From the NCBI GenBank assembly GCA_943788175.1, contig CALSPG010000005.1, positions 320,001 to 384,000 on the forward strand: a stretch of 64,000 bases of DNA, written 5' to 3'. Below the pieces are notes generated by a model. That model saw only the letters and a program-made list of their open reading frames with translations. It ran no database searches and was not told the origin of the DNA. This document shows positions 2,988 to 21,602 of this stretch, one piece after another. Positions within the stretch are counted from its first letter, which is position 1; each line of letters begins with the position of its first letter. The position numbers and the translations under genes are program-made. The DNA is from an uncultured bacterium. GTDB taxonomy: Bacteria > Fidelibacterota > Marinisomatia > Marinisomatales > UBA1611.

Positions 2988-3850
2988 TGTCAGAATTAAT
3001 ACAAAAACCTCACAAACCAAAGATTAAGCTCCAAATAGGAGAGAATTATAAATTTGTCAATAATGTTGTTAAAAATTATAATTTAAATACTGTATGCGCT
3101 GAAGCCAATTGTCCAAATATATACGAGTGTTGGAATAGAGGAACAGCTACGGTTATGATACTTGGAGATACTTGCACAAGAGCTTGTGGATTTTGTGCTG
3201 TTAAAACTGGTAAACCATCTTGGGATGATCCATTAGAGCCATATAGGACTGCGATGGCAGTCAAAAAGATGGATTTAAATCATGTCGTTATTACTAGTGT
3301 AGACAGAGATGATATAAAAAATGATTATGGTTCATCAATTTGGGCTAAAACAATTGAAGAAATACATAAGAATGTTCCAGGGTGTACGGTTGAAGTCCTG
3401 ACACCTGATTTTCAAGGTCACAGTGCTTCATTGGAAAAAGTTTTTCGCGCTAATCCTGAAATATTTAGTCATAATGTAGAATGCGTTGAAAGAATAAGTA
3501 AAGAGGTAAGAACCCAATCTAATTGGCAAAGAAGTTTAAATGTGCTTAGAAGTTCGGCAAACTATGGATTACGAACAAAAACGGGTATTATGGTTGGTCT
3601 AGGTGAAACTTTTGATGAAGTTCTAAAAACAATGGAAGAAACATATTATGCTGGGGTCTCTATCTTTACAATTGGGCAGTATTTACAACCAACTGGAAAG
3701 CATCTTAAAGTACAGCGGTACGTCTCTGATACAGAGTTTAAAAATTATAAAAATTTTGGTTTGAAAATAGGCTTTGATGTTATCGAGTCTGGGCCTCTAG
3801 TTCGTAGCTCTTATCACGCAGATGAACAAGCTCGAATCATAAGAAGATAA
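2987..3850 (+). CDS. lipA: Lipoyl synthase
   Basis: CAEANCPNIYEC, radical SAM CTRACGFC, C-terminal RSSY. Confidence 0.97.
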   Translation: MSELIQKPHKPKIKLQIGENYKFVNNVVKNYNLNTVCAEANCPNIYECWNRGTATVMILGDTCTRACGFCAVKTGKPSWDDPLEPYRTAMAVKKMDLNHVVITSVDRDDIKNDYGSSIWAKTIEEIHKNVPGCTVEVLTPDFQGHSASLEKVFRANPEIFSHNVECVERISKEVRTQSNWQRSLNVLRSSANYGLRTKTGIMVGLGETFDEVLKTMEETYYAGVSIFTIGQYLQPTGKHLKVQRYVSDTEFKNYKNFGLKIGFDVIESGPLVRSSYHADEQARIIRR

Positions 3851-15200: not shown

Positions 15201-16316
15201 ATGGCTACATATATAAAACAAAGAAAACGTCAGTACTCATCCCGTATTCAATGGAGAGACTGAGAATGGTAATAAGAGAGAACGAAAAATACCTCTTAAA
15301 ACTTCTTCTAAATCTGTTGCAGTAGTCAGAAACAATGAAGTAACGAAAGTTGAAGATACTATTATCGATGGAGATAATTGGTCTTTTGCTTGGATGAATG
15401 ATGATGGTAAAAGTTAAACTAATTAGATTATCTATTAGCGAGGCTTATGAAGAATATAGGATTGTCCAAAACATAGATGGAGTGAGAGCGTCTACGCTCG
15501 ATCGAGTTGATAACTCTATGAAGACACTATATAAAGTCTTTGGAGAGAACTATCCAATAGCATCATTAACATACTCGCATATAGAACAATTCAAAGAGTA
15601 TTGGCACGGAACACATCAACCAACTACAATGAATATTAATCTATCAAAGATTAAAGCGTTTCATAATTGGTGTCTTAAAAAAAGATATACTATAAAAGAT
15701 GTAGAGTTTAAGATGGTTAAGGAAGATGAAAAGCCTCCACAATATCTAACAGATGCTGAGTTTAAAAGCATAATGAAATGTGATATAATAGATGACCATT
15801 TCAAGAAAGCATTTGTATTCTATTTGTATACGGGTTGTAGAAAAACAGAACCATTTATTGCAGACTTAAATGGTAATTGGCTTACAATCAAATCAACAGA
15901 TGCTAAGTCTCACAGAACTCGTGATATTGAATTAAATGAAGTAACTAAGGGCATAGTTCAAGATATGAGAGATAGGTATCATTACTATATGGATGAATAT
16001 GCACAGAAACCAAGAAATGTGATTATGAACTATGGTAAGCAGTTCAAAAAGGCTTGTAGATACTTAGGTATCAAGGGCAAGACCTTACATTCATTGAGAC
16101 ATACTTATGCAGTTAGACGCTGGGCAATCACGGGAGACATTAAGATGGTATCTCAAGAGATTGGTCATAGTCTCAGTAGTGATGACAGAGAAGTATGCTA
16201 AGTTCAATCTTAGAAAGTTAAGAGATGATTTCCCCTCATTAAAAGAGCGTATCAATCTTAGACTTACTCCACCAAGTGAAGACTCATATTTTACTACGCT
16301 TTTAAATGCTATTTAG
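15201..16316 (+). CDS. Tyrosine integrase, three apparent 1-nt frameshifts (~15260, ~15410, ~16170)
   Basis: RBS AGGAG, ATG 15201; TGCRKTE, HSLRHTYA, IGHS/SVVMTEKY with the catalytic Tyr in the next frame; adjacent to attR. Confidence 0.9.
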
Positions 16317-16789: not shown

Positions 16790-17002
16790 CTATTTAGGTA
16801 CTACGTTTGTTGCGCAAGGACCTTTATCAGAAGAACCTTCTTCATAATCAACTTCCTGCCCGTCTCTTAAGGTTTTGTACCCATCCATTTGAATCTCATT
16901 CATATGAACAAATAAGTCTTTATCACCATCTTTTGGTGCTATAAATCCAAATCCTTTTTTATCATTGAACCATTTTACGGTTCCTTCTTTTACATCACTC
17001 AT
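16790..17002 (-). CDS. cspA: Cold-shock protein
   Basis: GTVKWFN, KGFGFI (RNP1), LFVH (RNP2). Confidence 0.95.
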
Positions 17003-17159: not shown

Positions 17160-17483
17160 ATGAAAAAATCGATAAATAAATTCATTTTAACTGGGATAGC
17201 TCTTTTATTTTTTAGCTCGATTTTTCATTTAGATCATACTCCGGCGCACGAGCATCAAAATGGATACAACATATGCAATATAGGATGTAAGGATATTGAG
17301 CATCATTCTTATTCTCATCAATGTGAAAAGTGTTTAAGCAAAACCCAAAGATATGTAAGTGTAAATCTTTTTGATTTATCACTTCATAACAACTCAACAT
17401 CATTTGACAATCCTAAAGACATTACTTTTTCTAAATTCATAAATTTTAATTCAAATAAAAGAGCCCCACCCATTATCCTTTAG
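17160..17483 (+). CDS. His/Cys-rich leader protein ending in RAPP (DUF2946/CruR-like arrest peptide), copy A
   Basis: N-terminal hydrophobic segment, HEH-GYNIC-x3-C-x4-HH-x5-CEKC, C-terminal KRAPPIIL. Confidence 0.8.
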   Translation: MKKSINKFILTGIALLFFSSIFHLDHTPAHEHQNGYNICNIGCKDIEHHSYSHQCEKCLSKTQRYVSVNLFDLSLHNNSTSFDNPKDITFSKFINFNSNKRAPPIIL

Positions 17484-17673
17484 ATTTTATTAAAGGAGCA
17501 ACAGTTTCAGTAAAAATACATTTTGTATGCAATGAGTGCATGCCAGTTTCGTATTTGTCGTAAACATCTATCATCAATTTTTCAGTAATGATTATAATTG
17601 AATTATGATTGAGAAATTTGATGCTCCTAAATCTTTGTTCAAAAATATCTTTTGAAAATCATAAAGGAAACAA

Positions 17674-18087
17674 ATGATGTTAAATTCAATAAATATTTCG
17701 ATAAAAAATATTAAAGTAGATAGTCTTGGCGCTTTGGTAAGCGGCTTATGCATGTTGCATTGTCTTGCAACGCCAATCTTTTTTATTGCTTCAGCTTGTT
17801 CAGCAGCATGTTGTAACTTTGCTCCAACTTGGTGGCAATCATTAGATTATATTTTTCTAGTTATTTCTCTTTTTGCTGTAATCCAAGCATCTAGAAATTC
17901 AAATAGTTCATTGGTTCCTAGGGGGCTACTAGCTAGTTGGTTAGGGTTAGGTTTTTTTATATTGAACGCTAAGTTTGGTTGGATTAGCGTTCATCAGAAT
18001 ATTAAGTTTATTCCTGCGTTTCTTCTTATTGGATTTCATCTATACAATATGAAGTACTGTCAATGTGAGAGCAATGAATGTTGCTAA
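17674..18087 (+). CDS. MerC-domain membrane protein
   Basis: DSLGALVSGLCMLHCLATP MerC signature, 4 hydrophobic segments, Cys-rich tail. Confidence 0.82.
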   Translation: MMLNSINISIKNIKVDSLGALVSGLCMLHCLATPIFFIASACSAACCNFAPTWWQSLDYIFLVISLFAVIQASRNSNSSLVPRGLLASWLGLGFFILNAKFGWISVHQNIKFIPAFLLIGFHLYNMKYCQCESNECC

Positions 18088-18121: not shown

Positions 18122-18370
18122 ATGAAAGAAAATGAATTTCCACTTCTAAAGATTACAAATATTGATTGGGATCCAGATCATGAAGAATTTGAAAAATTAC
18201 CCAAAAAATTAGAGCTTAAATGGGATAAAAAAAATTGGACCATCGATGATGTTTCAAACTGGTTAAGTCTTGAATTTGACTGGGTTTTTAACAGTCTTAA
18301 TATTAATCAAGTTGGAATTTGGGAGAATGGTGGTTGTAGTTGCTGCGCTGGCGGATGTAGTTGCTGCTAA
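18122..18370 (+). CDS. Small acidic protein with a tandem GGCSCC tail
   Basis: RBS GAGG; ends GGCSCCAGGCSCC. Confidence 0.7.
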   Translation: MKENEFPLLKITNIDWDPDHEEFEKLPKKLELKWDKKNWTIDDVSNWLSLEFDWVFNSLNINQVGIWENGGCSCCAGGCSCC

Positions 18371-18374
18371 ATTT

Positions 18375-20603
18375 TTAAATACGAAACCTGTAATTAATAT
18401 TGAATCCTAGCCCGGGTTCAGGCATTATCATTTTAATTTTAGATAAATGATTATAATAGGTTTCATTTAATATATTAGATACTTGAAATATTAATTGATG
18501 CATGCTATTATTTTTACTAAAAGTATACGTACAGTTATAATTAAAAAGTTTGTATCCATTTGTTGGCGTTTCAAACTCACCAAGTTTATCTTGATTAGAA
18601 ACTAACAAAAATTCAAAAGTGTTATTTAAAAACAGAATATTTTTTTCTATTTGAAATCGAATCAAATCTGGAGGAATGTATGCCAGTGACATATCGTTCT
18701 GTAAATCTAAACCTCGACATATTGAGGCATTTCCTAATAGGTTAAAATATTTTAGATTAATCTTAAAATTTGGCTCAAACCCATAAATCAAGGTTTCAAG
18801 GCCAAATATTTTATATTTATATAACCAACCTGAAGACCCACTACCCCACTCAATCCAATCGGCCCCAGTTTCGTAACCATCTCCCATTTTTTGAAAAATG
18901 TGAAAATTAGAGCTATAGTTTATATAACTGGTAAGATTGAATTCATTTTTATCATTAAAAAAAGAAAAAGTATTTTCAAATCCTAATGTATTCTCCTGAT
19001 CAAGCTTTGGTTCGCCAATCTCATACGAATAGCTTCCTAGATGGGGACCATCAGAATATAGATCTTCGATTTTTGGAGCGCGGCTTGTGTACAGAATATG
19101 ATTGTATATTGAATAATTTTTTCTCTTATTTAGTGCTGATATACCAAAAGAAAACAATATAAAATCACGTTTTTTTACATCTTCGGGTTCAATATTAGAA
19201 AAGAAAGTATCTTCAACACTAGGGTTGATTGATCGGTATTCAATCCTTCCAGAAAATTGCAATTTAAGGTTATCATACTTTCTATTATTTATGCCAAATA
19301 CAGCTAATTTTGTTTCATTGGAATTTGGAGTCCATATAAAACCGCGTGTAAGGTAGTCTCTATTTTGATAGTTAATACCAATTTTTAATGTTTCTCCGCT
19401 CAGTAAAGCATTCAAATAAATAATATTTTGTCTCAAATCAACAGATGCATAATTAGCATCCTTAACAAATTCCTTGTGCCCATATCTAATGTATCCTTGT
19501 TCAATATCTAAAATATTAAATGAAAAAAGTTTAATATCGCTGTGATACATTAATTTTTGGCTTTGATTTTTTAGTTCTAAGTCAACTCCATTAATATGTC
19601 CCTCTGGACTTCCTGGGATTCCATAATCCATTGAAAAATCTTTTATTTGAAGGGAAGTGAAATTTTTGGCACCAAACTTTGTTACAGCTATTGAAAGGTC
19701 GTTTTTTATTAATGCTGTATTTTTTAGAGAACCCAAGGGAGAAGATTGATCATTAGATTTTCTATTAGTTATTGACGTAAAAAGTTGATAGGTGTTTAAT
19801 GGAATACTAATATTTGTTCCTAAAAGCTTTGACTGGTTCGAGCTCTCATGTCCAAAAAATACATTATATAAAGCTCGTTCTATCTTTTTTTGACTATTCA
19901 TTGGAGATAGTATGTTAATTATACCAGCAATAGTGTTTGACCCATAGGCTAAGGTCTCTGGTCCTCGCATTACTTCTATACCTTCTGCAGAAGAAATTTC
20001 CATGCTCACCGCGTGGTCGGCAGTAGTGTTAGATAAATCACCAAGTTCAAAACCATCAGAGGTAATTAGGAATCTATCCCCTGAGTATCCTCTTAGAATA
20101 GGTCTTTGGGTTGCTTGCCCGGATGATCTCATCGCAACACCAGACTCCCCAGTAAGAGTGGTCGCAAGGTCGCTATTAATGTTTTTTTTCAATCTACTAC
20201 CAATCATCGATATTGAAGATGGGGCTTTATTCTTATTGCTCTCTTCATGTGAATGGACTGTTACTCCGCTCATTTGGATTGTTTTAGGAGTCAAAAAAAC
20301 TTTGTATTTATTCTTTATATTTTTGTGACTTACAAATAAGGTTGTATCCTTGAACCCAATCATCGAAATCTTTATTTCATTTTTCTTTAAATTATCTAAA
20401 GAGAGTGAAAAAGTTCCTAATTCACTGGAGACTGTACCAAGATCACTATCTACAATATAAACATTAGCACCAGATATAGGTTTCAGATTACTATTGTCAA
20501 ATATTACTCCTTTAATTGATGCTACTTCTTGAGCAGAAAGTGAGTTGATAAAAAATAGAGCTATATATAGAGGTAGATAACGCACGAAAAGAAGGAGTAT
20601 CAT
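18375..20603 (-). CDS. TonB-dependent receptor, probably for metal (Zn/Ni/Co) uptake
   Basis: Signal peptide, carboxypeptidase-regulatory-like N-domain, plug RPILRG..DHAV..RGP..YGS, GPHL loop, NILNETYYNHLS, terminal aromatic beta-strand. Confidence 0.9.
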   Translation of the reverse strand: MILLLFVRYLPLYIALFFINSLSAQEVASIKGVIFDNSNLKPISGANVYIVDSDLGTVSSELGTFSLSLDNLKKNEIKISMIGFKDTTLFVSHKNIKNKYKVFLTPKTIQMSGVTVHSHEESNKNKAPSSISMIGSRLKKNINSDLATTLTGESGVAMRSSGQATQRPILRGYSGDRFLITSDGFELGDLSNTTADHAVSMEISSAEGIEVMRGPETLAYGSNTIAGIINILSPMNSQKKIERALYNVFFGHESSNQSKLLGTNISIPLNTYQLFTSITNRKSNDQSSPLGSLKNTALIKNDLSIAVTKFGAKNFTSLQIKDFSMDYGIPGSPEGHINGVDLELKNQSQKLMYHSDIKLFSFNILDIEQGYIRYGHKEFVKDANYASVDLRQNIIYLNALLSGETLKIGINYQNRDYLTRGFIWTPNSNETKLAVFGINNRKYDNLKLQFSGRIEYRSINPSVEDTFFSNIEPEDVKKRDFILFSFGISALNKRKNYSIYNHILYTSRAPKIEDLYSDGPHLGSYSYEIGEPKLDQENTLGFENTFSFFNDKNEFNLTSYINYSSNFHIFQKMGDGYETGADWIEWGSGSSGWLYKYKIFGLETLIYGFEPNFKINLKYFNLLGNASICRGLDLQNDMSLAYIPPDLIRFQIEKNILFLNNTFEFLLVSNQDKLGEFETPTNGYKLFNYNCTYTFSKNNSMHQLIFQVSNILNETYYNHLSKIKMIMPEPGLGFNINYRFRI

Positions 20604-20614
20604 AAAAAAACTAA

Positions 20615-20644
20615 AAGCTGCCCAGACATTGATCTAGGCAGCTT
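20615..20644 (-). terminator. Intercistronic terminator-like hairpin just before the receptor start
   Basis: Minus strand GCTGCCTAGA-TCAATG-TCTGGGCAGC followed by T-runs. Confidence 0.65.
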
Positions 20645-20662
20645 CTTGTCTAATTACTACGA

Positions 20663-21188
20663 TTAATTAACAGTTACTGTTACGTTATTTGTAGAGGTGT
20701 AGTCTGCATGACCATCGTGCATTAATTGGATTTGAAAGCTAGTGCTTCCTGAGCTCACCCCAATAATGTGTAAAGCAGCTCCATGTTCTTCTTCATGATC
20801 ATGATCGTGGCTCTTCTTCTTCATGTTCTACTTCGACTATAGCAATACTTGCATCAGAACCAGATACCTCGAGTTCGCCTTCTTCGTGTCCTTCTTCCTC
20901 TTCTTCTTCCTCATCATGTTCAATTTCATTTCCATCATGATCAAGAAAATGGACAGATAATTCAAGAGTGTCGCCGACACTTAAAGCGACAGAACCAGTT
21001 ACGGCGCCTTCAAACTCTCTATAAACTTCAGTTCCGCTTTCATTCTCTAAAATGAAACCATCTGCATCGGTATGTCCGTCATCGTTGTTATCATGGTCGT
21101 CGTCTTCACAACCAGTTATAAATAACATGGCACATGTAAGTGAAAAAATAGTATACGCTTTTAATGAACGTAAGAATAGTGTTTGCAT
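20663..21188 (-). CDS. His/Glu-rich lipoprotein, 1-nt frameshift near 20811
   Basis: Lipobox ITGC; acidic/His tracts; shifted frame continues HDHDHEEEHG...LMHDGHADY...VTVN* to 20663. Confidence 0.8.
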
Positions 21189-21254
21189 AAAATGCTCCTT
21201 TAAAATTTTAAAATAGAATTGTACTAATTTATTAGTACGAGTGTAATACTGTTT

Positions 21255-21602
21255 TTAGTTAAAGGATGAGGGGGGTGCCCTTGAGGGGATATTTAATTGG
21301 TTTAAAAGATTTTTGAAAACATGCTCATCAAAATAATACGAATTTTTTGTTTTTACATAGGTATTGATTTTATATGTGTCATTATATATTTTCTGGTTAT
21401 TCTGATTTCTTGTACACTTATCGCAATCAGCCTTTAAAACATGGTGATCTGATGAGTTACATTCAGGGTTACAGATACTGTATCCTTCTTCTTTTGTGTG
21501 GTCATGCTCAGAAATATGAAGACTACCAGAAAGGAGTAGAAATGATAACGTAATTTGGCAAAGTCCTTGCAAGATGTTTTTTATGTTATTTTTCTTATGC
21601 AT
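21255..21602 (-). CDS. His/Cys-rich leader protein ending in RAPP, copy B
   Basis: Hydrophobic N-terminus, HDH-GYSIC-x3-C-x4-HH-x5-CDKC, C-terminal SRAPPSSFN. Confidence 0.8.
   Translation of the reverse strand: MHKKNNIKNILQGLCQITLSFLLLSGSLHISEHDHTKEEGYSICNPECNSSDHHVLKADCDKCTRNQNNQKIYNDTYKINTYVKTKNSYYFDEHVFKNLLNQLNIPSRAPPSSFN

Follow-up and report, generated by a model that had tools for sequence, protein, structure and literature searches.

In SecM, ribosome stalling disrupts a stem-loop that occludes secA's Shine-Dalgarno (SD) sequence (PMC10987492), and in CutF, a DUF2946 protein of Rhodobacter capsulatus, stalling was reported to melt a stem-loop shielding the ribosome-binding site (RBS) of cutO (bioRxiv 10.1101/2025.02.05.636593). 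CruR of Bordetella pertussis, the leader of bfrG, carries a CxxC motif, 45 residues, and then RAPP three residues before its end, the proposal being that metal ends the stall and turns uptake off (PMC9426467). RAPP and RGPP are the strongest published core stall motifs (PMC12992588), and RPPP is listed only as RAPP-like (PMC10987492). A 2025 survey (Fujiwara et al., PMC12992588) described small secreted RAPP/RGPP proteins upstream of TonB receptors and metal genes across Gram-negative phyla, and in its main account it leaves open whether, and how, arrest controls downstream genes other than those of the Sec system. Here, we describe a leader family of the Marinimicrobia found twice in a stretch of 64,000 nucleotides (nt; the window) of an uncultured bacterium (contig CALSPG010000005.1, positions 320,001 to 384,000), where copy A precedes a MerC-like gene and copy B precedes a lipoprotein gene and a TonB-dependent receptor gene. 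Neither Marinimicrobia nor MerC is mentioned in the main text of the survey, the supplements of which may list family members, and Marinimicrobia is absent from the available text of PMC10987492. No paper on this leader family was found in the literature on arrest peptides with TonB or Shine-Dalgarno or on CruR, DUF2946, or RAPP.

Unmasking of the downstream RBS by a stalled ribosome, in a metal-sensing arrest-peptide leader like CutF and SecM, is the best explanation for the locus, and we hold it with moderate confidence. Its basis consists of complementarity, predicted folds, conservation, codon bias, and family architecture. Comparative support is strong for the short-range version common in the family and weaker for the 180-nt version at copy A. 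The elements of copy A are given below.

17160-17483, forward strand: leader open reading frame (ORF) copy A, 107 amino acids (aa), ending in NKRAPPIIL-stop (from the ORF list, translation, and homologues)
17460-17471, forward strand: RAPP codons AGA GCC CCA CCC, the presumed stall site (from the sequence; R[P/A/G/S]PP is kept in the family)
17476-17488, forward strand: anti-SD segment TCCTTTAGATTTT, reaching from the last codons across the TAG stop to 5 nt past it
17491-17500, forward strand: proximal SD-like 'decoy' TAAAGGAGCA, pairing with TGCTCCT at 17622-17628 or, as a local hairpin, with the anti-SD
17622-17628, forward strand: TGCTCCT, which forms the inner helix on its 3' side and is a second element resembling an anti-SD; present in the minimum free energy (MFE) structure
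17655-17668, forward strand: AAAATCATAAAGGA, which provides the MerC-like gene with its RBS region and also forms the long-range helix on its 3' side
17677-18087, forward strand: MerC-like membrane protein gene (match to Pfam PF03203, MerC)

At the N-terminus of the copy A leader is a hydrophobic signal or transmembrane helix; a His/Cys cluster with CEKC at its end comes next, and after a spacer of 42 residues RAPP is followed by Ile-Ile-Leu and the stop codon (TAG, 17481-17483). TCCTTTAGATTTT begins 4 nt past the last Pro codon of RAPP. With the stall geometry for RAPP taken from PMC10951233 and PMC12992588, the peptidyl-tRNA would sit on CCA 17466-17468 and the Pro-tRNA on CCC 17469-17471, and the part of the anti-SD at 17476-17480 would then be no more than about 15 nt from the P-site codon, a stretch in which a stalled ribosome would keep the mRNA single-stranded. 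The product of the MerC-like gene matched PF03203 across the whole profile (positions 1-108 of 108; E 2.5e-17, 63.8 bits, cut-off 27.6), and no NCBIfam model matched it. A preliminary description of this DNA had located the pairing strings, and all of them were found at the coordinates that it gave, including AGGAGCA at 17494-17500, TGCTCCT at 17622-17628, and the second TAAAGGA at 17491-17497. It had also assigned the RBS to an ATG at 17674; the RBS string was correct, whereas the start was not, as ATG 17677 is the conserved start common to all six copy-A-type relatives. The extra in-frame ATG at 17674 is found in L046 and window-like sequences; L041 has ACG there, and L001, L043, and L044 lack it.

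The proposed pairing of TCCTTTAGATTTT with AAAATC-A-TAAAGGA (17655-17668), 13 bp with one bulged A, was borne out in the MFE structure, as was the 7-bp inner helix AGGAGCA/TGCTCCT, which is nested within the outer helix; RNAfold had been named as a check on both. The fold of 17460-17690 had an MFE of -44.3 kcal/mol (z = -2.83); of 200 dinucleotide-shuffled sequences, 2 did as well. Across the ensemble of 17400-17700, the expected number of pairs was 10.44 of 13 for the outer helix, 5.90 of 7 for the inner helix, and 0.41 of 7 for the local alternative hairpin formed by the anti-SD and the adjacent TAAAGGA. The unpaired probability of the SD bases in the free copy A RNA was 0.04, which increased to 0.24 in the same context when the footprint of a stalled ribosome was blocked. 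A shorter context at L042 gave an increase from 0.19 to 0.54. L042 and L002, the window's own locus, were merged by the duplicate filter, and their post-RAPP and RBS segments are identical. The duplex between the 28-nt post-RAPP segment and the RBS segment of L042 was calculated at -12.2 kcal/mol; the 86 other 28-nt windows taken from this leader ORF and the 100 shuffled RBS segments all fell short of that energy.

The leader family was found by profile search in 28 of 61 related genomes and belongs to Marinimicrobia (marine SAR406). Together with metagenome loci, 74 non-identical loci were collected, which after the downstream starts were refined comprised 46 loci of the lipoprotein class, 14 of the ATP-binding cassette (ABC) class, five of the MerC class, two more in which the MerC gene is damaged, and a small remainder. 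Among 1.84 billion representatives, a profile search returned 142 matches at E <= 1e-3. The motif [R/K]xPP was present within the last 14 residues of 113 of these (RPPP in 77, RAPP in 23, RGPP in 7, RSPP in 4, and KSPP in 2), and most of the 29 representatives without it were short or partly matched entries. The motif was followed by three (57), four (33), or five (12) residues in 102 of the 113 motif-bearing representatives. CxxC was found in 93 of the 113, and its spacing to the motif was 42-45 residues in every case (42 in 64, 43 in 16, 44 in 12, and 45 in one).

In an alignment of 29 family sequences, C55 and C58 were nearly invariant and the hydrophobic N-terminal segment was conserved. 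The AlphaFold2 (AF2) model of the leader obtained with this alignment showed a confident helix at residues 2-23 only and, with a mean pLDDT of 58.7, was too poor to reveal a metal site. Pfam, NCBIfam, and Rfam returned no named family for the leader or the copy A spacer. DUF2946 (Pfam PF11162) matched none of the 29 family members at E <= 10, and at E <= 1 the genome contained no match to it. In a language-model search, the named ESM-Atlas clusters that came nearest carried DUF2946 on 12-36% of their members (score 0.95, 161 of 256 shared features), which can be taken as a lead only. The genes downstream of the leaders encode a MerC-like protein, an H/D/E-rich lipoprotein together with a TonB receptor with a partial ZnuD-like match, or an ABC ATPase, and no protein-localisation component was found there. 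The annotation of these genes suggests that the leaders head metal-homeostasis operons.

The main paralogue class comprises a leader, an H/D/E-rich lipoprotein, and a TonB receptor; here a strong TAAAGGAG lies 63-86 nt downstream of the post-stall codons CTC-CTT-TAx and is predicted to pair with them. The pairing was evaluated as a duplex between a 28-nt segment (last five codons, stop, and 10 nt) and the 25 nt ending at the downstream start codon. The mean duplex energy for the 46 lipoprotein-class loci was -9.33 kcal/mol, compared with -5.41 kcal/mol for other windows of the ORFs and -5.01 kcal/mol for shuffled RBS segments, and the true post-stall segment ranked best of 86 windows at 20 of the 46 loci. 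By the partition function, at least half of the SD bases paired with the post-stall segment at 30 of the 46 loci. Across 44 loci, the eight pairs of the outer helix were paired in 78-92% of the sequences, compared with 35-55% when the partner was slid by 1-3 columns.

The inner intergenic hairpin of the family showed compensatory changes in all seven of its pairs across the 44 loci (alignment A5, columns 60-66/83-89) and, judged from this covariation, is clearly under selection. It may serve to join the anti-SD and the SD, as a protein site, or as a pause or termination signal. The hairpin was also considered as an intrinsic terminator and rejected in that role; its T-run is about 20 nt away, next to the SD, and non-canonical. 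The window's copy A has lost this hairpin, and L046 retains it.

The genome itself uses SD sequences sparingly. A core SD motif was found upstream of 147 of 890 long ORFs (16.5%), compared with 7.4% of random windows; AGGAG or GGAGG was found upstream of 30 of the 890; and a 16S-like 3' end with CCTCCTTT is present. The strongly conserved TAAAGGAG before the regulated genes is therefore unusual, and the few strong SDs of a low-SD organism may mark specially regulated genes.

Several results weigh against unmasking by a stalled ribosome. No SD pairing to the post-stall segment was predicted at 16 of the 46 lipoprotein-class loci, and the predicted unmasking in this class was modest (mean SD unpaired probability from 0.17 to 0.31). 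The 14 ABC-class loci showed no anti-SD pairing to the ABC start (-2.97 kcal/mol vs. -4.41 kcal/mol for the controls), and this class may thus use a different relay. In the copy A model, a terminating ribosome left the SD unpaired with a probability of 0.25, as against 0.24 for a stalled one; as a terminating ribosome also opens the helix, any regulatory effect must come from the duration of the stall. RPPP is the majority motif of the family, and relief of a PPP stall by elongation factor P (EF-P) has been reported for CutF (bioRxiv 10.1101/2025.02.05.636593). The RNAalifold consensus of the 44 spacers contained the inner hairpin only, without the outer helix, and double changes in the outer helix were few (three of eight pairs, four cells, 44 loci). 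One strand of the outer helix also codes for protein, and the other is the SD. As both strands are otherwise constrained, codon choice was examined.

The residues after the stall are mostly Leu-Leu, and among the 79 Leu codons at these positions in 57 leaders, 28 were CTC, 45 were CTT, and two were TTA. The rare Leu codon CTC occupied position -2 in 28 of the 57 leaders. By comparison, CTC and TTA accounted for 6.5% and 43.1% of the Leu codons in the leader bodies and for 4.8% and 43.6% of those in the 890 long genomic ORFs. The post-stall residues have not been made when the ribosome stalls, and the arrest itself therefore cannot select for these Leu codons; the synonymous bias points to selection on the RNA. 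The anti-SD and the RBS also vary together by lineage (CCTTTTG/CAAAAGG, CCTATAA/TTATAGG, CTCCCTT/AAGGGAG, and the copy A extension GATTTT/AAAATC). Each anti-SD paired with its own RBS at -9.01 kcal/mol on average, compared with -7.91 kcal/mol for crossed combinations, and none of 5000 permutations was as low, where the relatedness of the loci makes both counts and permutations overstate independence and is a further point against the proposal. The window-type (copy A) segment ranked 1 of 48 for its own RBS.

With +1 as the first base of the third motif residue (P site), CTC CTT TA lies at +10 to +17 in the majority layout R-P-P-P-x-L-L-stop, and TCCTTTA of copy A lies at +11 to +17. Within a bacterial ribosome, the mRNA stays single-stranded as far as about +13 to +15. 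By its position, the anti-SD's C-rich half, which pairs with the GGAG core, falls inside a stalled ribosome, and this would explain the retention of a tail of about three codons.

These elements can be arranged into a mechanism for copy A. The leader would be made as an exported 107-aa protein with a Cys/His cluster ending in CxxC, 42 residues before RAPP, and translation would stall when RA-P occupies the P site and the A site has reached the last Pro codon, provided that RAPP and RPPP arrest these ribosomes. The stalled ribosome would keep the next 12-15 nt or so single-stranded, which corresponds to the 5' half of the anti-SD (TCCTTTA). When no ribosome is stalled, the anti-SD and its extension would pair with the RBS of the MerC-like gene around the nested helix of the decoy SD and the second anti-SD, if the RNA folds in the cell as predicted. 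In a nearly isoenergetic alternative, the anti-SD would pair with the decoy and the second anti-SD (TCCT) with the RBS, so that the RBS would be masked either way. With a ribosome stalled, the helix of the decoy and the second anti-SD would form alone and the RBS would be freed. As for polarity, binding of a metal or folding of the emerging Cys/His cluster, Sec pulling, or both would release the stall, and the metal-acquisition genes would be translated only under metal scarcity.

A wider proposal, which we put forward as a tentative possibility, is that much of SAR406/Marinimicrobia uses a nascent-chain metal sensor instead of, or on top of, classical metalloregulators. The Cys4/His3-4 cluster, located 42-64 residues from the peptidyl-transferase centre, may bind zinc or another thiophilic metal, and metal binding during exit from the ribosome or membrane crossing may pull the chain out of the R-x-P-P arrest. 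The RNA read-out may lie in the three codons left untranslated at the stall (CTC CTT TAx), which mimic the 16S anti-SD. The sensor may have been copied in front of three operons, namely, the ZnuD-like receptor with its lipoprotein, the MerC-like permease, and the ABC system, and in copy A it may have become, by rewiring, a switch of four elements (anti-SD1, decoy SD, anti-SD2, and SD) acting over 180 nt.

The copy A helix could instead be an evolutionary leftover, in which the anti-SD acts mainly on the adjacent relic SD and translation of the MerC-like gene is set by local context or by a promoter of its own. Six copy-A-type sequences (the window, L041, L001, L043, L044, and L046) bear on this alternative, and we consider it unlikely. 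L046 has the ancestral hairpin and TTTTTTAAAGGAGCA after the leader stop with no start codon behind them, followed by the same spacer and MerC gene, and about 46 nt of this ancestral module have been lost in the window type. The decoy TAAAGGAGCA appears to be a relic of the RBS of the ancestral lipoprotein gene. As L046 keeps the ancestral hairpin and TTTTTTAAAGGAGCA before the same spacer and MerC gene, copy A looks like a lipoprotein-type module that was fused to a new cargo, after which the loss of about 46 nt left the relic SD as a decoy. The RNAalifold consensus of the copy-A-type sequences also favours a local arrangement, as the inner helix is kept in it and the local hairpin TCTTTTG/TAAAGGA takes the place of the outer helix. 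The partition function gave a long-range helix fraction of 0.66-0.74 in the window-like sequences only and of about 0 in L001/L045, L044, and L046. The local hairpin of the anti-SD and the decoy, when forced, was only 1.5 kcal/mol above the MFE.

Against the leftover interpretation, this forced fold still masks the RBS, with TCCT 17625-17628 pairing to it instead, and the GATTTT/AAAATC extension is exclusive to copy-A-type loci and ranks first for its own RBS. The capacity to form the helix is retained in all six relatives, in near-invariant columns, and the 20 proposed pairs were paired in 95.7% of cases across the six sequences, compared with 44-60% when the partner was slid. The preliminary description expected the pairing to be conserved with covariation across homologues; the pairing capacity is conserved, whereas covariation amounted to a single double change in the inner helix (G-C to G-U to A-U) and did not exceed the shuffle controls. 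No sigma-70-like promoter or terminator was found in the copy A spacer (17484-17673) by a sigma-70 scan, which does not cover the promoter types of this phylum. RNA-library contigs (X1, X2, and X4, from one study) bridge the leader, spacer, and MerC-like gene; nearby genes on the opposite strand are spanned by these contigs as well, which therefore decide neither for a single transcript nor against an internal start. Under unmasking by a stalled ribosome, copy A would act as a four-element switch whose RBS is masked in both low-energy folds of the model and freed only when the first anti-SD is occupied. The RBS-occlusion logic of SecM and MifM, which the preliminary description had carried over to this locus, has good comparative support across the family and less for the 180-nt helix of copy A, with its fraction of about 0 in distant relatives.

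An output of the CruR type appears unlikely; in it, a real stall at RAPP would act on transcription, the stalled lead ribosome preventing Rho from reaching the nascent RNA and so allowing transcription into the downstream gene, with the anti-SD complementarity being secondary or incidental. CruR has the same protein architecture, heads a TonB-receptor operon, and was reported to use termination by Rho within an intergenic region of 162 bp (PMC9426467). A Rho gene is present in the genome (PF07497, E 3.1e-33), and the copy A spacer between the leader and the MerC-like gene is long (190 nt). However, the intergenic regions are A/T-rich rather than C-rich, most spacers of the family are only 63-86 nt, and a Rho-based output leaves unexplained the CTC-CTT codon bias, the lineage-matched variants of the anti-SD and SD, and the conserved strong SD in an SD-poor genome. 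Rho-dependent output and RBS masking are not mutually exclusive.

That there is no programmed arrest, the leader being an ordinary secreted metal-binding protein with a structural Pro-rich tail and the helix reflecting plain translational coupling through any ribosome that completes the leader, is quite unlikely; it agrees with the SD being unmasked as much by a terminating ribosome as by a stalled one in the model, and the AF2 fold argues neither way, but RAPP, RGPP, and RSPP are among the most strongly avoided bacterial tetrapeptides and are enriched near the C-termini of small secreted proteins preceding regulated genes (PMC12992588), and the family holds R-x-P-P, CxxC spacing, and tail length within narrow limits, all of which were shown to be important in CruR (PMC9426467).

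Copy B lies on the reverse strand of the window and has the following elements.

21255-21602, reverse strand: leader ORF copy B, 115 aa, with CDKC and ending in SRAPPSSFN-stop; architecture as in copy A
21259-21266, reverse strand: anti-SD TCCTTTAA, within the codons TCC TTT AAC after RAPP
21221-21238, reverse strand: intergenic hairpin GTACTAA-(loop)-TTAGTAC, corresponding to the conserved inner hairpin of the family
21196-21203, reverse strand: RBS TTAAAGGA(G), 7 nt before ATG 21188
18375-21188, reverse strand: target operon with the H/D/E-rich lipoprotein gene and the TonB-dependent receptor gene

The copy B leader is related to that of copy A (BLASTP E 3e-07), and TCCTTTAA pairs with TTAAAGGA across a 66-nt spacer holding the small hairpin, in both the MFE and centroid structures (-16.9 kcal/mol, z -3.08). 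The best NCBIfam match of the TonB-dependent receptor (18375-20603, reverse strand) was a partial one to ZnuD (E 2.3e-35, 122 bits against a cut-off of 950). A frameshift in a GAA-rich repeat, either real or an assembly error, divides the copy B lipoprotein gene into two parts (20799-21188 and 20663-20827, reverse strand). The part at 20799-21188 ends in EEEEPRS, and the conserved C-terminal part (HDHDHEEEHGAALHIIGVSSGSTSFQIQLMHDGHADY...) lies in another frame at 20663-20827. The lipoprotein gene of relatives is a single ORF of about 156-184 aa.

A third copy of the leader is present on another contig of the same genome (G000 contig C2, about 3134-3442, reverse strand), upstream of an ABC ATPase gene. 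In the ABC class (RPPP leaders; also L004, L017, L020, L022, L076, and others), the spacer is about 139-150 nt with a hairpin after the stop, and a possible mini-ORF (MKLLYICNLVL in this genome) is preceded by AAAAAGAG.

The copy A operon ends with one further gene.

18122-18370, forward strand: 82-aa protein with a Cys-rich C-terminus (GGCSCCAGGCSCC), the last gene of the copy A operon

This protein matched nothing in Pfam or NCBIfam; the gene is co-oriented with the MerC-like gene, and the tail GGCSCCAGGCSCC may be a thiolate-rich metal-binding tail. About 150 nt of the copy A spacer (17500-17650, forward strand) are well conserved among the six relatives and contain two predicted conserved hairpins (alignment A6, columns 120-129/141-150 and 164-174/179-191), and a 34-aa antisense ORF (17473-17577, reverse strand) overlaps the spacer. 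The MerC-like gene looks damaged in L043 (a later start or a broken N-terminus) and is a 41-aa ORF running into reverse-strand-like sequence in L044, either of which may be an assembly artefact. An inverted repeat over the copy A start, ATTATCA-N7-TGATAAT, resembles a Fur-family box and was dropped as a candidate, its right arm being lost in L001 and altered in L043 and L044. Upstream of copy A are a cold-shock-domain gene (16790-17002, reverse strand) and a 267-aa ORF (15398-16201, forward strand), which was matched only by phage-integrase N-terminal SAM-like domains (PF13102, E 8.2e-07).

The family provides a comparative answer, for one lineage, to the question, left by the survey, of how arrest might control non-Sec downstream genes: the partner of the RBS sits in the codons just past the stall point, is maintained by synonymous codon choice, and changes along with the binding site. 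Metal-linked arrest leaders are thereby extended to an abundant uncultured marine phylum and to a family missed by the DUF2946 model, with one sensor placed ahead of three kinds of transport operon. The constructs are short and portable (about 110 codons plus 70-190 nt) for tests of metal-dependent arrest release.

Among the described systems, SecM and ApdA/ApdP/ApcA resemble the family in a C-terminal stall motif of the RAPP/RAGP type and in an N-terminal export signal, for which the family has a candidate in its hydrophobic segment, and in them the stalled ribosome opens a stem-loop over the downstream SD (PMC10987492, PMC7897499, PMC10951233). Their targets are Sec/YidC components and they monitor secretion, whereas the Marinimicrobia family has metal-related targets and a conserved Cys/His cluster. 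The class surveyed in PMC12992588 is likewise small and signal-bearing with R[A/G]PP near the C-terminus, but that survey took RAPP and RGPP only, whereas the Marinimicrobia family mostly carries RPPP. The protein plan is shared with CruR, which also heads a TonB-dependent-transporter operon (PMC9426467). CruR differs in its Rho-dependent termination and G+C-rich intergenic region, for which its report describes no RBS hairpin, whereas the present family has a conserved anti-SD/SD helix and belongs to another sequence family and phylum.

As in CutF-cutO, the leader is small and presumably exported, combines a Cys metal motif with a Pro-rich stall motif at its C-terminus, and precedes a metal-homeostasis target, and a stem-loop in the leader-target mRNA shields the RBS of the target, with its melting by a stalled ribosome being predicted here. 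CutF carries CxxxC and PPP and matches DUF2946, whereas the Marinimicrobia family has a larger C/H cluster ending in CxxC and no DUF2946 match. The target of CutF is a detoxifying oxidase and Cu induces the stall, whereas the targets in the Marinimicrobia family look like uptake systems, and a polarity opposite to that of CutF would thus be expected. A further difference from CutF is the location of the anti-SD within the post-stall codons; that of copy A would reach a partner 180 nt away and is joined by a second anti-SD and a decoy SD. The family is most likely a divergent addition to the metal-linked arrest leaders with RBS masking; it involves no new principle, as the logic of CutF/cutO has already been established experimentally.

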